Below, one piece after another: positions 97-60,563 of a stretch of 64,000 nucleotides of DNA. The notes under the pieces are model-generated. The model ran no database searches and had not been told where the DNA came from. It saw nothing but the letters and a program-made list of their open reading frames with translations. This DNA comes from Anaerolineae bacterium. GTDB taxonomy: Bacteria; Chloroflexota; Anaerolineae; JAAEKA01. A program made the translations under genes and the position numbers. The DNA lies in assembly GCA_049294015.1 (NCBI GenBank), contig JBAQCH010000385.1, forward strand, positions 1,111-65,110, given 5' to 3'. Positions within the stretch are counted from its first letter, which is position 1, and each line of letters opens with the position of its first letter.

Positions 97-660
97 ATGA
101 CAGCAACAGCAATGGCAGCACCTAAACCCGCCCCTTGGTGGCTGATTCTGGTGCAGGGTATCCTGGCGATCGTCGTGGGCATTCTTTTCCTCACAAACCC
201 GGTCACGACATCTAAGACGCTTGTGGGCTTTTTGGGCGCCTACTGGCTCATCCTCGGCATCCTCGACATCGTCGGCTTGTTCCGTGACCGCACCGCCTGG
301 GGCTGGAAACTCTTCACCGGCATCATCGGTATTCTAGCCGGCGGCATCATCCTCACCAACTTCTTCGGCAGCGACGTCACCAGTTTAGACCGGCTGCTGG
401 TTACGGCTGGAGTAGCCACCGCCTTTGCCTGGGTAATTGGCTTCTTGGGTGTGTTCTACGGCATCATCATGCTGATCCAGGCCTTCCGCGGCGCTGGTTG
501 GGGCGCAGCCATTCTGGGCGTCCTGACTATCATCTTCGGCTTCATCATCCTGAGTAACCCGCTGTGGACAGCGCTCGGCCTGCCCTTCGTGATCGGCATC
601 TGGCTGCTGATTGGCGGGATCTCCCTGATCTTCGCCGCCTTCCGCGTGCGCAGCGCTTAG
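97..660 (+). CDS. HdeD/DUF308-family membrane protein
   Basis: 187 aa; repeated GxLxIxxG hydrophobic segments typical of DUF308/HdeD; RBS AAGGAG upstream of ATG 97; paralog at 63209. Confidence 0.7.
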   Translation: MTATAMAAPKPAPWWLILVQGILAIVVGILFLTNPVTTSKTLVGFLGAYWLILGILDIVGLFRDRTAWGWKLFTGIIGILAGGIILTNFFGSDVTSLDRLLVTAGVATAFAWVIGFLGVFYGIIMLIQAFRGAGWGAAILGVLTIIFGFIILSNPLWTALGLPFVIGIWLLIGGISLIFAAFRVRSA

Positions 661-5932: not shown

Positions 5933-7813
5933 ATGATACGCCTCCTCAAGCTCATCGCTCCCTTCCGCTGGTGGATCGTCGCCGGCGTGCTGTTGAGCTT
6001 CGCCGTCACCGGGGCCAGCGTCGGGCTGATGGCCGTGTCGGCCTACCTGATCTCCAAGGCGGCGTTGGCGCGCGACATGACCGACCTGGCCGTCTGGATC
6101 ACCGGCGTGCGCTTCTTCGCCGTCTCCCGGGCCGCGCTGCGTTACGCTGAGCGCTACGTCACCCACCTGGCCACCTTCCGCATCCTGACCTCGCTGCGCG
6201 TCTGGTTTTATAGCGCTGTCGAGCCGCTGGCGCCGGCCCGGCTGGCGTCATACCGCAGCGGCGACCTGTTGACCCGCATCGTAGCCGACATCGAGACGCT
6301 GGAGAACTTCTACCTGCGGGTGGTGATCCCGCCCTTGGCCGCCGCGCTGGTCACGCTGCTGGCCTGTCTGCTGCTGGGCAGCTTCGACGTCTGGCTGGGC
6401 ATCGCCTTGCTAAGTTTCTTGCTGCTCACCGGCGTCGCCCTGCCGCTGGCCAGCCGCTGGCTCAGCCGCCAGCCGGCGGCCGAGGCCATCGCCCTGCGCG
6501 CCGAGCTGAACGCCACGCTGGTGGACGACATTCAGGGCATCGCCGATCTGCTGGCCTGTGGCCAGGAAGAGGTGTACCAGGCCCGCACGCTGCGACTCAG
6601 CCAGCAACTCCACCAGGCTCAGCAGCGGCTGGCCCAGGTGCGCGGCCTGGGCAACGGTCTGGCCGCGCTCTGCGCCAGCCTGGCCGCGCTGACCGTGCTG
6701 TTCCTGGCCATCCCGCTGGTGACCGCCGGCCAGATCGACGGCGTCTTCCTGGCCCTGCTGCCGCTGGCCGCCATCGCCGCGTTCGAGGCCGTCCAGCCGC
6801 TGGCCCACGCCTGGCAGACGCTGGAATCCAGCCAGGCGGCCGCCCGACGTATCTTCGAGCTGGTCGACGCGCCAGGACTGTCAGGTCGGCGAATCGACGG
6901 CGGGACGAGCATGGGCGCGACGGGGCAGCCCCACACGTCAGCCGCCGACCTGACAGTCCTTGATGTAGTCGACGGCGGGACGAGCATGGGCGCGACGGTG
7001 CAGCCCCCCACGTCAGCCGCCGACCTGACAGTCCTTGATGTAGTCGACGCGCCAGGACTGTCAGGTCGGCGAGTCGACGGCGGGATGAGCATGGGCGCGA
7101 CGGGGCAGCCCCACACGTCAGCCGCCGACCTGACAGTCCTTGACAGCGGCGGCCTCTCTATCGAAATACGGGACCTGCGCTTCCGCTATGCTGCCGACGA
7201 GCCGCTGGTGTTGGACGGCGTCAGCTTCAGCGTGCCAGCCGGCGGCCGCGCGGCCATCGTCGGCCCCAACGGCTCCGGCAAGTCCTCGCTGGTCAACCTG
7301 TTGCTGCGCTTCTGGGACTACGAGGGGGGAACGATCCGCGTCGGGGGACGTGACTTGCGGGAGATGTCCGCCGACGAGGCGCGCGGCCTGCTGGCCGTCG
7401 TGCCGCAGCACACCCATCTGTTCAACGCCACGATTCGCGACAACCTCCACCTGGCCAACCCCGATGCCAGCGACGACGAGCTGATCGCCGCCTGCCAGCA
7501 AGCCCAGCTTCACGACTTCATCCAGAGCCTGCCGCAGGGCTACGACACGCTGGTGGGGGAGAACGGGCTGCTGCTCAGCGGCGGCGAGCGGCAGCGGCTG
7601 GCCATCGCCCGCGCCGTCCTGAAGGACGCGCCGATCCTGATCCTGGACGAGGCCACGTCGCAACTGGATGCCCTGACCGAGCAGCGCCTCTTGCAGTCGC
7701 TGGCCGCTTTCATGGGCCGCCGCACCACGCTCCTGATCTCGCACCGCCGGGCCGGGCTGGCGCAGTTCGAGCGCATCGAGCTGGAGGCCAGCAGCGCCGG
7801 GAATTACACCTAA
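5933..7813 (+). CDS. cydC: thiol reductant ABC exporter, CydC subunit (TMD-NBD) with repeat insertion in linker
   Basis: ABC exporter TMD plus NBD (GPNGSGKSS, LSGGERQR, ILILDEAT); contains three tandem ~105-bp palindromic in-frame repeats at 6864-7143. Confidence 0.85.
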   Translation: MIRLLKLIAPFRWWIVAGVLLSFAVTGASVGLMAVSAYLISKAALARDMTDLAVWITGVRFFAVSRAALRYAERYVTHLATFRILTSLRVWFYSAVEPLAPARLASYRSGDLLTRIVADIETLENFYLRVVIPPLAAALVTLLACLLLGSFDVWLGIALLSFLLLTGVALPLASRWLSRQPAAEAIALRAELNATLVDDIQGIADLLACGQEEVYQARTLRLSQQLHQAQQRLAQVRGLGNGLAALCASLAALTVLFLAIPLVTAGQIDGVFLALLPLAAIAAFEAVQPLAHAWQTLESSQAAARRIFELVDAPGLSGRRIDGGTSMGATGQPHTSAADLTVLDVVDGGTSMGATVQPPTSAADLTVLDVVDAPGLSGRRVDGGMSMGATGQPHTSAADLTVLDSGGLSIEIRDLRFRYAADEPLVLDGVSFSVPAGGRAAIVGPNGSGKSSLVNLLLRFWDYEGGTIRVGGRDLREMSADEARGLLAVVPQHTHLFNATIRDNLHLANPDASDDELIAACQQAQLHDFIQSLPQGYDTLVGENGLLLSGGERQRLAIARAVLKDAPILILDEATSQLDALTEQRLLQSLAAFMGRRTTLLISHRRAGLAQFERIELEASSAGNYT

Positions 7814-7908: not shown

Positions 7909-10620
7909 ATGACACAATCCATCCATGCAGTTGCGCGCTTCCTTCTTCGTTTTGTTCTCGTCTGGCTGGTTGACGCCGTCTCCTTGCTCATTGCCGCCGG
8001 CATCCTGCCGGGGATGGAGTTTGTAACCATCGGCCCAACCCCAGCGTGGGTGGTGGCGGTGTCCGCCGCCTTCGTGATGGGCCTGGTGAACCTGCTGATC
8101 CGGCCATTGATCCTCATGTTGGCCCGGCCGCTGGGTTTCTTTGTCATGTTCGGCGTGGGCTTCCTGGTCAATGCGCTCGTCTTGCTGATCACTGCCAACC
8201 TGCTCGCGCCCGCCTTTTTGATCGGCGGCCTGCTGCAGGCCATCGTCGCCAGCATCGTCCTGGCCATCATCAACGCTGTGCTCACCGGTATCATCGAGCT
8301 AGATGACGAGGGCTCCTTTTTCCAGAACCGCATCGAACGCCAGGCCAGACGTCACATGTTCGCCGGCGCGACGGAGACGGGTCGCGGGTTGGTGATGATG
8401 GAGATCGACGGCCTTAGCTATCATCACCTCCACAAGGCGCTGGCCGATGGGTTGATGCCGACTCTGCAGCAGATGATCGACGAGCAAGGCTACGTCCTCT
8501 CCAAGGTCGATTGCGGCATCCCCTCGCAGACTTCGGCCTGCCAGGCCGGCATCCTGTTTGGCGACAACGACGACATCCCCGCCTTCCGCTGGTACGACAA
8601 GAGCGAGCAGCGCCTGATCGTCTCCACCAAGGATGCGACCTATCTGAATGCCCGCTACGCCAACGGCAATGGCCTGCTGCGCGGCGGCTCCAGCATCGGC
8701 AATATGCTCAACGGCGACGCCGAAAAGTCGCTGCTGACCGTGGCCGACATCAAGACCGACGACAAGGAGCAGCAAAAGCGGCGCGCGGAGGACATCCGCC
8801 TGCTGATGCTCCATCCCTATTTCTTCATGCGCACCATCGCCCTTTTCTTCGGCGTCGTGCTGCGCGAGCTGTGGGAGGGCTGGCAGCAGCGGCGCAAGGA
8901 TGTCTATCCCCGCCTCAACCGGCTGCACGGCGGCTATCCCTTCATCCGCGCGGCCACCTCCACGCTGGTGCGCGACCTGACGGCCAATCTGACGTTGCTG
9001 GACATCGTGCGCGGCTCGCCGTCGATCTACATCACCTGGCCCGGCTATGACGAGGTGGCGCACCACTCCGGGCCCTGGACCAGCGACGCCTTCGGCGAGC
9101 TGAAACGCTATGACCGGGTTATTGCCCGCGTGCAGCGGACCATCCAGGAGAAGGCGCCGCGGCCCTATGACCTGGTCCTGCTCTCCGACCACGGCCAGTC
9201 CTTCGGGCCGACCTTCAAGATGCGCTACGGCGTCACGCTGAAGGAGTTCATCGAGCAGCACCTGCCGCAGGGTGTGACCGTGGCGCAGTCGATGGGCGGC
9301 GACACCGGCATGACCTCGCTGACCGGCGTGTCGGGCGAGCTGGCCAACGTTCAGCAGCAGGAGGGCGGCGCCGCTGGCCGGGCCGTGGCGAAGCAAGGGC
9401 AGAAGCTGATCGAACAAGGGGCCAAGGCAGGGGAGCCGGAAGAGCTTGCCCAGGCTGCGCAGGTGACGGCCTACGGCAGCGGCAACCTGGCTCAGGTCTA
9501 CTTCGATCTCCAGCCGCGCAAGATCACCCTGAGCGAGCTGAACGAGGCCTACCCCGGCATGGTCGACGCGCTGGTGCAGCACGAGGGCATCGGTCTGGTC
9601 TGCGGCTATCTGGACGACGGGACGCCCGTGGCGCTGAGCAAGGCTGGCCAGCGCAACCTACACAGCGGTGAGGTGACGCGCGCGGACCCGCTGCTGCCCT
9701 ATGCGCCGGCCGATCCCGCAGCCTACGGCCACGCGGCCATCGAGAAACGAATCTGGCAGGTGCGCCGGGTGATGGACTTCCCCCACGCCGGCGACCTGAT
9801 GGTGATCAGCACGGTCTACCCCGACGGCACCGTGGCCGCGCTGGAGGAGCTGATCGGCAACCACGGCGGCATCGGCGGCGAGCAGACCGACGCCTTCCTC
9901 TTCCATCCAGCCGACGTTCTGGTGCCCGACACCCGTAACTCCACCGACGTGTTCCAAATTCTTAACGCCGTGCGCGGCACGCCCGTGCCCCCCAACGCTG
10001 CGGGCGCGCAGGCTGGCCAGGCCGCTGCGATCAGCGCCTGGTCGTCGTCCAACCTGGCCAGGGGCATCGGCAGCGTTGGCGTCTGGGTCGGGTGCGCCTT
10101 GCGAGCGTTGATCCTGGAGCGCAGCGCCTATCGTGAGGTGGCGCAAGACGCTTTGATGACCGGCCCGGCATTGCTGATTGCTGTGCTGGCGGCGCTGGTC
10201 GAGATGCTAGTGGTGACCGGCGGCTTCGACGGCCCGTTTCTCGCCATCCGCCTCGGCCTGTGGCTGCTGGCGGTCTTGTTCATCTTCGCTGCCGGGCGGC
10301 TGTTGAGCGGCAAGGGCGCGTTCACCAGGACGTTCCGAGCCGTGGGCTTTGCCCAAGTTGCCTGGTTCCTGGGACTGTTGGCGCTCATTCCCCCCATCGC
10401 GCCGCTGGCCCGGCTGATCACCGTGCTGTATGCTTTCTTCGCCGTCTGGCTGGGCGCTGCGGAGGCGCATGAGACCAAGGGCTGGCGCACCGTTGTGTTT
10501 CCGGTCGTCGCGTTGCTGCTCTTGATCGTCGTTGGCTTCGCGTTGCGTTCATTGCTAGCCGGCGCCGAGTTTGCTTTGTCGGCGCTGTTCAACGACTTCG
10601 GCCTGGCCCCCCAGCCGTAA
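7909..10620 (+). CDS. fusion protein: DUF360/phage-holin-4-like N-terminal membrane domain + type I phosphodiesterase/nucleotide pyrophosphatase (AlkP superfamily) + C-terminal Yip1-like membrane domain
   Basis: 903 aa; N-term 4-TM PF04020-like segment; middle domain with AlkP-core-like motifs (MEIDGLSYHHL, CGIPSQTSACQAGILFG); C-term multi-TM Yip1-like segment. Confidence 0.7.
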   Translation: MTQSIHAVARFLLRFVLVWLVDAVSLLIAAGILPGMEFVTIGPTPAWVVAVSAAFVMGLVNLLIRPLILMLARPLGFFVMFGVGFLVNALVLLITANLLAPAFLIGGLLQAIVASIVLAIINAVLTGIIELDDEGSFFQNRIERQARRHMFAGATETGRGLVMMEIDGLSYHHLHKALADGLMPTLQQMIDEQGYVLSKVDCGIPSQTSACQAGILFGDNDDIPAFRWYDKSEQRLIVSTKDATYLNARYANGNGLLRGGSSIGNMLNGDAEKSLLTVADIKTDDKEQQKRRAEDIRLLMLHPYFFMRTIALFFGVVLRELWEGWQQRRKDVYPRLNRLHGGYPFIRAATSTLVRDLTANLTLLDIVRGSPSIYITWPGYDEVAHHSGPWTSDAFGELKRYDRVIARVQRTIQEKAPRPYDLVLLSDHGQSFGPTFKMRYGVTLKEFIEQHLPQGVTVAQSMGGDTGMTSLTGVSGELANVQQQEGGAAGRAVAKQGQKLIEQGAKAGEPEELAQAAQVTAYGSGNLAQVYFDLQPRKITLSELNEAYPGMVDALVQHEGIGLVCGYLDDGTPVALSKAGQRNLHSGEVTRADPLLPYAPADPAAYGHAAIEKRIWQVRRVMDFPHAGDLMVISTVYPDGTVAALEELIGNHGGIGGEQTDAFLFHPADVLVPDTRNSTDVFQILNAVRGTPVPPNAAGAQAGQAAAISAWSSSNLARGIGSVGVWVGCALRALILERSAYREVAQDALMTGPALLIAVLAALVEMLVVTGGFDGPFLAIRLGLWLLAVLFIFAAGRLLSGKGAFTRTFRAVGFAQVAWFLGLLALIPPIAPLARLITVLYAFFAVWLGAAEAHETKGWRTVVFPVVALLLLIVVGFALRSLLAGAEFALSALFNDFGLAPQP

Positions 10621-10799
10621 ACAGAACAGGACTTACGCCAAACGCTGGTCGAGTAGGCCCGGCGGGTTTCGATACGCTGGATTTGAGCCTGCAAGATACG
10701 TGGTTGCAGCCGCCACTCAACCCACCGGCCGTATCGAGACCCGTTTTGCGTAAGTCCTGAGAGTTTTCGGACCTTTCATCGAAGGAGGCTTGCAACACA

Positions 10800-11429
10800 A
10801 TGCAGTACATTGCGACGTGGCGCAGGCAGTTCAACTGGCGCATGGTGCTGATGCGCATCGTCATCAATGCCCTGGCGCTGCTCATCACTGCCGGGCTTGT
10901 GCCCAACATCTACTTCATCGACCGCAACTTCAGGAGTTGGCTGCTGTTAGCGGTGGCTTTGGGGGTCTTGAACGCCCTTGTCAAGCCTATCATCCAATTC
11001 CTGACCCTGCGCTTCATCTTTGCCACTTATGGCCTGGTGGTGGCGCTGATCAACGGCGTGCTGCTGCTGCTGCTGGAGCTTCTGTTCCCCGGCCGCTTCG
11101 CCGTCGAGGGCATTCTCTTTTGGCCGCTGGTGGGCGGGGCGGTGATCGGCATCATTAGCGCGATCCTTGAAAGTCTGCTGGGCCTGTCGCCGCCCATCGT
11201 GTCCGAGAAGTACCCTGAGCTGCGCCAGCGCATCAAGGATGGGGAGACCGGTTCCGTGCAAGCCTTGATCACCGAGACGGCCGTCTCGAAGACCCTGGAG
11301 CCGCAACAGGCTGAACAGCCTGCCAGCAGGCCAGCTCAGGATGCCGCCGCAGTCTTGGCCGTGCTTGGAACCGACCGCGAGGCGGCAGATGTGCCGGCCC
11401 AACCGGCGCCGACAGAGCAGGAGGCCTAG
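10800..11429 (+). CDS. DUF360 (phage holin 4-like) family membrane protein
   Basis: 209 aa; paralogous to the N-terminal domain of the 7909 gene; GAAGGAGG RBS. Confidence 0.7.
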   Translation: MQYIATWRRQFNWRMVLMRIVINALALLITAGLVPNIYFIDRNFRSWLLLAVALGVLNALVKPIIQFLTLRFIFATYGLVVALINGVLLLLLELLFPGRFAVEGILFWPLVGGAVIGIISAILESLLGLSPPIVSEKYPELRQRIKDGETGSVQALITETAVSKTLEPQQAEQPASRPAQDAAAVLAVLGTDREAADVPAQPAPTEQEA

Positions 11430-25966: not shown

Positions 25967-28822
<2,856 letters not shown>

Positions 28823-40818: not shown

Positions 40819-40830
40819 TCGAACTGAACT

Positions 40831-40864
40831 GCCCTTTGGGCTGTGACGCCGCAGCCCAAAGGGC
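40831..40864 (+). terminator. rho-independent terminator
   Basis: gccctttgggctg / cagcccaaagggc stem followed by ttctttcattt. Confidence 0.55.
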
Positions 40865-40877
40865 TTCTTTCATTTGG

Positions 40878-45074: not shown

Positions 45075-45343
45075 CGTGCAGCGGGGGACTGAACCGCGCA
45101 CCCTGCACCTGGCGGTTGGCCACCCGTGGGTTGAGTAGCCGCCTGCGGCGTATCGAAACCCACGGGTGGCCAACCACCTGAGTCCTACACCTTTTTTGCG
45201 CACTTTCGGCTCTTGTTTCGACCGGGGGGGCATGATAGTCTGATGGCGCGGCTGAATCGCATCAGGCCGTAGCGCGCGGGGTCAGGCTGGCGAGTCTGCC
45301 TGACCACCATCTCTACGCTCAGGATCGACCAGGGGCCAAGCCG

Positions 45344-59454: not shown

Positions 59455-59627
59455 CGGCACAGCCGTTGTTGCGCCGGTGTGTGAAACGTGGGTTAAGTAG
59501 GCCGCCGTACACCTGCACTTGCGCCGGAGCGCGGCGCAGGTGCAAGCGTCGAAACCAGCGTTTCGCACACCGGCAGAGTTCAAGCAGCGTTTGGCACACC
59601 CGGCTAGGCGACGCGACAAACCACGCC

Positions 59628-60491: not shown

Positions 60492-60505
60492 TAGCTCTTT
60501 GCTCT

Positions 60506-60528
60506 CGCCGGTTCCGTGAACCGGCGGC
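60506..60528. terminator. terminator hairpin between convergent genes
   Basis: cgccggttc cgt gaaccggcg. Confidence 0.45.
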
Positions 60529-60563
60529 AGCGGTAGCTAGGGACGCATTTACACCACCGTCTA

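Follow-up and report, generated by a model that had tools for sequence, protein, structure and literature searches.

What do three long palindromes in a stretch of Anaerolineae DNA have in common, and is it a signal that serves the genes beside them or a piece of mobile DNA? The stretch (64,000 nucleotides, referred to here as the window) comes from contig JBAQCH010000385.1 of an Anaerolineae bacterium of the phylum Chloroflexota (GenBank assembly GCA_049294015.1; positions 1,111 to 65,110, forward strand). It carries three strong imperfect hairpins, each close behind the stop codon of a plus-strand gene, at distances of 7 to about 37 nt. A first-pass annotation had taken them for three copies of one long intergenic element, similar to repetitive extragenic palindromic (REP) sequences and bacterial interspersed mosaic elements (BIMEs), that acts as a terminator or RNA-stability element. 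We find that the three loci share a module much smaller than the hairpins themselves, and that this module is a widespread family with a selected fold. We think it probable that it is a miniature, non-coding, mobile palindromic module, read as single-stranded DNA folded on the strand that carries GAGTAG.

Three hairpins with one small module in common

All three hairpins lie within a few bases of where they had been placed, and the stems quoted for them are exact. Predicted folding energies lie between -55 and -76 kcal/mol. Measured against dinucleotide shuffles, the z-scores on both strands fall between -4.1 and -7.2. None of 200 shuffled controls folded as well, a fold far beyond what GC content would lead one to expect. 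The sub-motifs that had been noticed are likewise real and, within the window, confined to the hairpin loci: GGGTTRAGTRG matches without mismatch at the three loci only, and CGTMTCGAAACC, with at most one mismatch, only in copies 1 and 2. No stem sequence is common to the three copies. What they share is a module of the form (C-G-S-Y)GGTT-GAGTAG-(hairpin of any sequence)-CGTATCGA-AACC, 31-60 nt long and 31-45 nt in its minimal form. GAGTAG and CGTATCGA are conserved unpaired strings at the foot of the hairpin, clamped by a GGTT/AACC helix, and C-G-S-Y is conserved directly before that helix. The features in the window are as follows.

10627-10759, no strand assigned: copy 1, a composite, MITE-like palindrome of 133 bp (sequence and fold; MITE, miniature inverted-repeat transposable element)
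10647-10741, plus strand: outer module of copy 1, GGTC-GAGTAG ... C-GTATCGA-GACC (paired-halves scan)
10665-10722, minus strand: inner module of copy 1, GGTT-GAGTGG-(36 nt)-CGTATCGA-AACC (string and halves scans)
45111-45178, whole hairpin of copy 2; 45112-45175, plus strand: copy 2 itself, a single module capping a near-perfect 22-bp stem (sequence, fold and covariance model)
45129-45132, plus strand: GGTT of the copy 2 core
45133-45138, plus strand: GAGTAG of the copy 2 core
45139-45148, plus strand: hairpin CCGCCTGCGG of the copy 2 core
45149-45156, plus strand: CGTATCGA in the 3' part of the copy 2 core
45157-45160, plus strand: AACC in the 3' part of the copy 2 core
45107-45111 (left) and 45176-45180 (right), plus strand: 5-nt direct repeat ACCTG around copy 2
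59471-59574, plus strand: copy 3, a module on a 20-bp outer stem (sequence, fold and paired-halves scan)
59491-59500, plus strand: GGTT-AAGTAG of copy 3
59501-59505, plus strand: GCCGC of copy 3
59506-59509, plus strand: CGTA of copy 3
59510-59548, plus strand: palindromic insert of 39 nt, CACCTGCACTTGC...GCAGGTGCAAGCG, splitting the copy 3 module between CGTA and TCGAAACC
59549-59556, plus strand: TCGAAACC of copy 3

A scan of the window for paired halves with flanking complementarity recovered four module instances at the three loci, because copy 1 consists of an outer plus-strand module around an inner minus-strand one. The same scan returned one extra 4-bp match (26853-26900, minus strand) that lacks the CGTATCGA half and looks like chance. 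A covariance model trained on unrelated viral copies and then run on the window scored copy 2 at 53.9 bits (E = 5.6e-12) and the inner module of copy 1 at 31.8 bits (E = 3e-06; the match spans 10655-10732, minus strand). Copy 3 gave a weak match of 8.6 bits, because the 3' half of its module is split by an insertion. The three loci are not copies of one long element, as the first-pass annotation had it: only the small module is common to them, and copy 1 is a member of a different family, of MITEs that have termini of their own and make 5-bp target duplications. The wider notion of a dispersed repeat family of REP/BIME-like type stands, with many further copies, inverted doublets, and structure well beyond composition.

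Evidence that the fold is selected comes from covariation. In a set with 113 distinct sequences among 114, 82% of cells are paired, and cells changed on both sides number 247 against 94 in shuffles, a count that none of 500 shuffles reached; sliding the partner column destroys the signal. At each of four inner-stem pairs CG, GC, AU and UA all occur. The innermost pair of the outer helix also covaries, giving GGTT/AACC or GGTC/GACC (UA 107, CG 6), and the GGTC...GACC variant, a compensatory change from T-A to C-G, is found as well in L062, L080, L084, L113, L129 and L126 (L-numbers are labels of the loci compared here, 1.18 Mb of DNA around modules in total). GAGTAG stands immediately 5' of the covarying stem in all pattern matches, although the invariance of GTAG is partly built in, the search pattern having required GTRG; GTGG variants occur in window copy 1, L092, L114 and L157. 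Between the halves lie 7 to 36 nt or more, a spacer that is always self-complementary, and the halves themselves form an imperfect inverted repeat of each other (GGTT-GA-GTA-G versus GGTT-TC-GA-TA-C-G). Long stems are atypical, with at least 8 bp beyond GGTT/AACC in 15 of 178 copies. On the 5' side the flanking sequence itself is conserved (C at -4 in 76%, G at -3 in 96%) and has no conserved pairing partner; since the 3' flank is not conserved, pairing does not explain this.

No family in Rfam 15 matches the module. At gathering thresholds the window gave 0 hits, in E-value mode it gave sub-threshold microRNA-hairpin look-alikes at copy 2 only, and six other module-bearing loci had no match on a module. 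Compared by eye, the hammerhead (CUGAUGA...GAAA), the sarcin-ricin/loop E motif (AGUA/GAA) and the k-turn show only partial resemblance, and self-cleavage on the sense strand is untenable because the element sits intact within translated open reading frames (ORFs). CRISPR or tandem arrays were also considered and set aside: the units are unevenly spaced, and within the Gordonia arrays their orientation alternates.

Distribution of the module

The motif search that had been proposed turns up further copies in large numbers, in viral and in bacterial genome collections. The exact pattern GGTTGAGTAG-N(6-36)-GTATCGAAACC specifies 21 bases, for which about one chance match or fewer is expected from its information content. 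It matches 37 IMG/VR viral contigs, and the spacer is self-complementary in every match. A near-identical pattern matches at least 119 stretches of GTDB species genomes. Carriers among the matches listed include Anaerolineae, Caldilineales, Chloroflexia and Dehalococcoidia in the Chloroflexota, and many Microbacteriaceae, Gordonia, Nocardioidaceae and Propionibacteriales in the Actinomycetota, together with Treponema bryantii and relatives and one Desulfosarcina. The core is identical across three phyla. With the covariance model of the viral copies we obtained 199 matches in 718 kb of genome loci, and the loci around modules hold 292 units in total. Density reaches 5 units per 8 kb, in arrays, in Gordonia sinesedis; the window has 4 units in 64 kb. 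A description of the module is absent from Rfam and from the literature as searched by sequence strings and by concept, which is not proof of its being undescribed; searches with the sequence strings returned primer coincidences only, and those by concept led to the paper on GTAG/CGTC REPs.

Histories of the three loci

Copy 2 is the simplest of the three. It lies about 36 nt past the stop of a gene for a MalT/LuxR-type regulator, and the ACCTG repeat around it may be a target-site duplication or chance: the repeat is not conserved in L163, and a control that used slack shows that 5-nt repeats are not rare by chance. Relatives allow the same site to be followed. In L160, where the flanking regulator is 93% identical, copy 2 is identical at the orthologous site. 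In L163 (regulator 80% identical) it has decayed, with GTAG changed to GGAG, two pairs changed on both sides, and four A.C mismatches and one G.T. In L164 (74%) unrelated sequence stands in its place, with both flanks still aligning. The genome of the window is close to a metagenome-assembled genome (MAG) named 'uncultured Anaerolinea sp.'; an ortholog with 84% identity is found on contig CAZVGR010000017, and other homologs bear the names Caldilineales or Anaerolineae. Copy 2 is probably an old single insertion, inherited and now decaying in relatives.

Copy 1 has a more layered structure. It begins 7 nt past the stop of gene 7909-10620, whose product has Phage_holin_4_2/DUF360, phosphodiesterase and Yip1 domains, and ends 40 nt before the start at 10800. 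Because this gene and the next (10800-11429) both begin with a Phage_holin_4_2 (DUF360) domain, the MITE stands between two genes sharing a domain. Copy 1 folds at -68 kcal/mol (z -7.2) and has the termini CAGGACTTACGC(C/A)AAACG ... CGTTTTGCGTAAGTCCTG; the "inner hairpin" of its outer module is an entire inner module. Its 3' arm is exact in 15 metagenome contigs, one of them the same locus as the window, and the whole composite occurs in at least 10 unrelated flanking contexts on metagenome contigs, with similarity that stops exactly at CAGGACTT...AAGTCCTG. Sister copies are flanked by 5-bp direct repeats (AGAAC, ATCAG, ATCTT, plus two cases matching at 4 of 5 positions); a clean duplication is absent around window copy 1 (CAGAA / AGAGT). 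Terminal inverted repeats combined with a duplication of fixed length, the hallmarks of a MITE, are found in the family of copy 1 only.

L150 carries two MITEs of about 100 bp (about 290-388, minus strand, and 7440-7540, plus strand) with the termini of copy 1 (CAGGACTTACGC...GCGTAAGTCCT) around an unrelated interior; a CTACT duplication borders one of the two. Because these elements share the termini and not the interior, the CAGGACTTACGC termini are the transposase ends there and the modules are passengers; no transposase was found beside CAGGACTTACGC ends in the loci compared. Sister copies that are otherwise identical also differ in the modules they contain. The inner reversed unit is found in most of them, whereas the interior of L166 is free of modules; in L167 and L168 a further unit of 31 nt stands between CTACTCAACC and CACCGGG, and L174 looks, from its sequence, like a deletion between two GAGTAG repeats. 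These differences are the clearest evidence here for single modules coming and going. Copy 1 is probably a DDE-type MITE that acquired two nested modules. Among other members of this family, L178 169-399 is a CAGGACTTACGC MITE copy of about 230 bp enlarged by a further palindrome, GTCATCCTGAGGC...GCCTCAGGATGAC, and at L145 1-100 the contig end falls within a copy of the composite element.

Copy 3 lies 17 nt past the stop of an AI-2E transporter gene (Pfam match), and its outer stem has one G.T pair on the plus strand. We suggest that it is a module later split by the other palindrome that now interrupts it. A related hairpin family (CACCTGCACTTGC...GCAAGTGCAGGTG) is found at the same module position in L129 and L113, and this shared insertion point suggests a preferred target within the conserved 3' half.

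Behaviour as mobile DNA

The module multiplies within genomes, forms inverted doublets, and nests in palindromes and in itself. Copies within one contig can have the variable stem and the flank in common (L003, L013, L026, L051, L063, L065). Adjacent pairs in genomes form 55 convergent inverted doublets, 11 divergent ones and 6 tandem pairs, and in doublets, as in REPINs, each unit's 5' flank is complementary to the 3' flank of the other; phage copies are single units. Nested modules occur in window copy 1, L027, L047 and L133, and modules lie at the centre of palindromes of the GTCATTGCGAGG...CGAAGCAATC family and within the CAGGACTTACGC MITE. The former, with the fuller form GTCATTGCGAGG...CG(A/C)CGAAGCAATC, is a second widespread palindromic repeat, seen to wrap the module at L013 4681-4737, L129, L139, L150 1537-1600, L154 and L007.

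Individual sites gain and lose the module, which also tolerates translation on its stop-free strand. That strand, which reads GGTTTCGATACG...CTACTCAACC, has no stop in any frame, and the GAGTAG strand has TGA or TAG in two frames. Within long phage ORFs it appears in frame as the peptides GFDT...ATQP, VSIR...ATQP or ...YSTT, and by PHROGs these ORFs encode a portal protein, a head-morphogenesis protein, a ParB-DNA methyltransferase and a glycosyltransferase. It is also in frame within a large methyltransferase-like ORF, and lies within bacterial ORFs with coding-type GC content at third codon positions (L040, L118, and the Treponema ORFs of 606-896 codons in L053 and L112). A portal-protein ORF (L005 3-1772) has two in-frame module-derived peptides, GFDTAGKNRPAY... 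and GFDTLDKNHPATQP, so one gene can accumulate several insertions. Given hundreds of copies across phyla and phages, some even in frame within genes, we favor miniature selfish DNA over a terminator.

In the phage head-morphogenesis family the module is present in 4 of 120 homologs, at a length-hypervariable hot spot after AVRHERLV. The segment there runs to about 8 to 40 residues (P0001-P0120; L014 2393-3565, L036, L158, L159) and in many other homologs is filled with apparent translated palindromes of several families (for example IASASPRNDM, DQLSVISE, MNDEGGRMNE). A structural gene thus contains a hot spot for insertions, and because it is hypervariable no insertion boundary can be read there.

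Direct repeats around modules follow no single length. They are absent from 119 of 178 modules and measure 3 to 10 nt at the others, and those of at least 6 nt are enriched about ten-fold (11 of 178, about 1 expected). Repeats of 7-10 nt flank modules in L048 (TTTACGATTT twice), L047, L058 and L135. Halves that stand alone are either variants or matches due to chance, and no autonomous element with such halves at its ends was found.

The folded strand and how it might be read

Why would the module be read as a single strand? GNA triloops closed by C-G number 43 on the GAGTAG strand against 1 of the complementary form, and d(GCGAAGC) is a very stable mini-hairpin of this triloop type. Purine-purine mismatches (GAG...GAG) lie on the GAGTAG strand too. 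The triloop asymmetry, together with the conservation of the 5' flank as sequence, points to one strand being read as a fold. In phages the GAGTAG strand is antisense to neighbouring genes in 17 cases, sense in 8 and ambiguous in 11, a bias that speaks against an mRNA function and for a fold at the DNA level, although the same bias would arise from selection against stop codons on the GAGTAG strand. We infer that the folded GAGTAG strand is recognised as single-stranded DNA by an enzyme that would read the foot of the hairpin and not its stem; the best precedent is the way Y1 HUH transposases of the REP-associated (RAYT) or IS200/IS605 type recognise the hairpins of GTAG-tagged REPs. Any consequence for flanking genes, for example 3' exonucleases being stopped or long stems being cut by RNase III, would be a by-product.

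Several observations weigh against reading the module as a folded, mobile single strand. A.C mismatches, which are G.U on the other strand, exceed G.T (33 versus 18), and the four-to-one ratio in L163 runs the same way, so that wobble counts do not favor the GAGTAG strand; as a test for the folded strand they are weak, and they point in the opposite direction to the loops. Searches of all loci (8678 ORFs) with an HUH-Y regular expression, tblastn and phmmer tied no transposase to the module. The single RAYT gene in the 1.18 Mb (L064 4695-5288, minus strand, in an Anaerolineae MAG; NF047646, score 95.9 bits, cut-off 80) has on both sides hairpins of its own that differ from the module, GCAACGC-TCT-GCGTTGC, and a module doublet on one side only, 118 nt upstream. 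RAYT-REPIN systems are, to our knowledge, chromosomal, vertically inherited and not carried by phages or plasmids, unlike a module found in phages and three phyla. No fixed target duplication was found around 178 modules. Neither was a clean empty site recovered, the phage hot spot being hypervariable and L164 having unrelated DNA at the site of copy 2. Finally, copies 2 and 3 are sense to their upstream genes in the window, where a role in RNA is conceivable. GC skew, calculated to orient replication across the window, is uniformly slightly negative and uninformative.

One could go further and propose an undescribed class of ultra-small mobile DNA, 31-45 nt long and made of a fold plus about 26 fixed bases, that is spread between phyla by phages and inserts in palindrome tips and in frame in genes. 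Its enzyme would be specific for single-strand hairpins and not a RAYT, or its mechanism would be linked to replication. We regard this as speculative and rather unlikely.

The role proposed by the first-pass annotation, a functional structured RNA (a stabiliser in the 3' untranslated region, a processing site or a protein-binding hairpin) selected for its effect on neighbouring genes, seems to us unlikely. It would account for the strong covariation and the selected fold, for an internal loop rich in purines, in which sheared G.A pairs may form, together with GNA loops confined to one strand, and for the position of the window copies just past plus-strand stops. Known REPs can protect mRNA 3' ends, as Di Nocera et al. 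2013 (PMC3733652) discuss. But none of the three loci has the T-tract of a terminator on either strand (at copy 2 the nearest T-run begins about 15 nt past the stem), and Rfam offers no match. The module occurs on either strand relative to genes, with the structured strand antisense to its neighbours in most scorable phage cases, and it is found in frame within ORFs, as inverted doublets, and nested in both orientations. At the orthologous site of copy 2, moreover, relatives have the mutated GTAG (L163) or no element at all (L164), and the flanking genes are retained. Strong hairpins that stand between co-directional genes could slow down exonucleases or be substrates of RNase III, but the orthologous loss and decay, the orientations and the coding-region data suggest that an effect on transcripts is not what maintains the family.

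Might every copy instead be a conventional MITE that a single DDE transposase family moves in double-stranded form, with the two halves as imperfect subterminal inverted repeats that bind the transposase? The family of copy 1, the ACCTG repeat around copy 2, the enrichment of flanking direct repeats of at least 6 nt, and the inverted similarity of the halves are all in line with this. We nevertheless consider it quite unlikely, for direct repeats are missing around most modules and differ in length where they occur, and entire insertions of 31-45 nt in ORFs leave no space for further ends. Binding to a duplex needs no self-complementary spacer, which is what the module always has, and loops and flanks are strongly asymmetric between the strands. 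A longer element bounded by both halves was not found in the loci compared, and on the L150 MITEs the transposase ends are the CAGGACTTACGC termini, not the module.

That the hairpins are attC-like or other site-specific recombination sites, used as folded single strands by a tyrosine recombinase, is highly improbable: a structure-defined element with conserved foot bases and with stems and loops free in sequence and length would suit such a site, and GTTGAGT alone fits GTTRRRY, but the polarity is reversed (GTT 5' and AAC 3' on both strands, versus RYYYAAC...GTTRRRY), the neighbours are ordinary chromosomal and phage genes and not promoterless cassettes, and copies lie within ORFs and as doublets.

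Relation to known elements and implications

The closest known kind is the GTAG-tagged REP/REPIN family (for REPINs, Bertels and Rainey 2011, PMC3116915). For GTAG-tagged REPs, stem-loops of about 20-40 bp whose stem and loop sequence is conserved within a family, Di Nocera et al. 2013 (PMC3733652) describe inverted dimers, a position 3' of ORFs, and in-frame intragenic copies. The module resembles them in being a small stem-loop whose 5' foot bears an unpaired GTAG (in some copies GTGG), in its many copies per genome, in its inverted doublets with GTAG outside, in its location just 3' of ORFs, and in occasional in-frame genic copies, with TAG/TGA stops supplied on one strand. It differs in that its stem is free in sequence (113 distinct of 114), in that its core is longer (C-G-S-Y-GGTTGAGTAG plus CGTATCGAAACC) and identical across three phyla, and in that single units occur in phage genomes, including structural genes. 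A RAYT flanked by the same repeats, as REPIN-RAYT systems have it, was not found in the 1.18 Mb of loci. Rickettsia palindromic elements, cited in the same paper's account of such repeats (PMC3733652), are 100-150 bp long, limited to Rickettsia and conserved in sequence, whereas the module is 31-60 nt long, occurs in several phyla and in phages, and has its structure as its defining feature.

Copy 1 has a likeness of its own, to the MITEs Correia/NEMIS, ERIC and RUP: it is about 133 bp long, has terminal inverted repeats, and forms a long hairpin between co-directional genes, and its sister copies have the 5-bp target duplications and the many unrelated insertion contexts of bacterial MITEs. 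The likeness is limited to copy 1, and even there the interior is built of smaller modules that follow other rules. Small dispersed repeats of cyanobacteria, a 2008 subject of Elhai and colleagues, reportedly nest in one another and in other palindromes, are non-coding and have no known mobilising enzyme. They serve here as a lead only, and differ from the module in sequence and in host phyla. In IS200/IS605 elements the hairpins at the two ends differ from each other, and the target is a defined tetra- or pentanucleotide. As with their subterminal hairpins and the gene-less palindrome-associated transposable elements (PATEs), unpaired foot bases and not the stem would guide a Y1 HUH enzyme to the module, which shares with both a strand asymmetry and the lack of a fixed target duplication. 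Unlike in IS200/IS605, a single hairpin is the whole unit, and tnpA was not found nearby.

How REP-like repeats spread is still largely unsettled, and a fixed, strand-asymmetric core around a free stem gives a sharp handle on the question. The module is abundant in cultured Actinobacteria and in Treponema bryantii, and also in phages, which makes enzymes, junctions and strand rules directly testable. It bears on annotation as well: modules give rise to spurious ORFs and to peptides inserted in frame (GFDT...ATQP, VSIR...YSTT), might be annotated wrongly as riboswitches or terminators, and may break or confuse metagenome assemblies (L145, and L085, where an array of modules is followed at about position 1100 by a run of N). 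With a covariance model for the module, genomes of Chloroflexota and Microbacteriaceae, and those of their phages, could be annotated more cleanly.

The window has two further perfect short palindromes that are unrelated to the module, at 40829-40868 (CTGCCCTTTGGGCTG...CAGCCCAAAGGGC) and at 60500-60532 (CGCCGGTT...AACCGGCG); the covariance model matches the second of them only via the GGTT/AACC helix.

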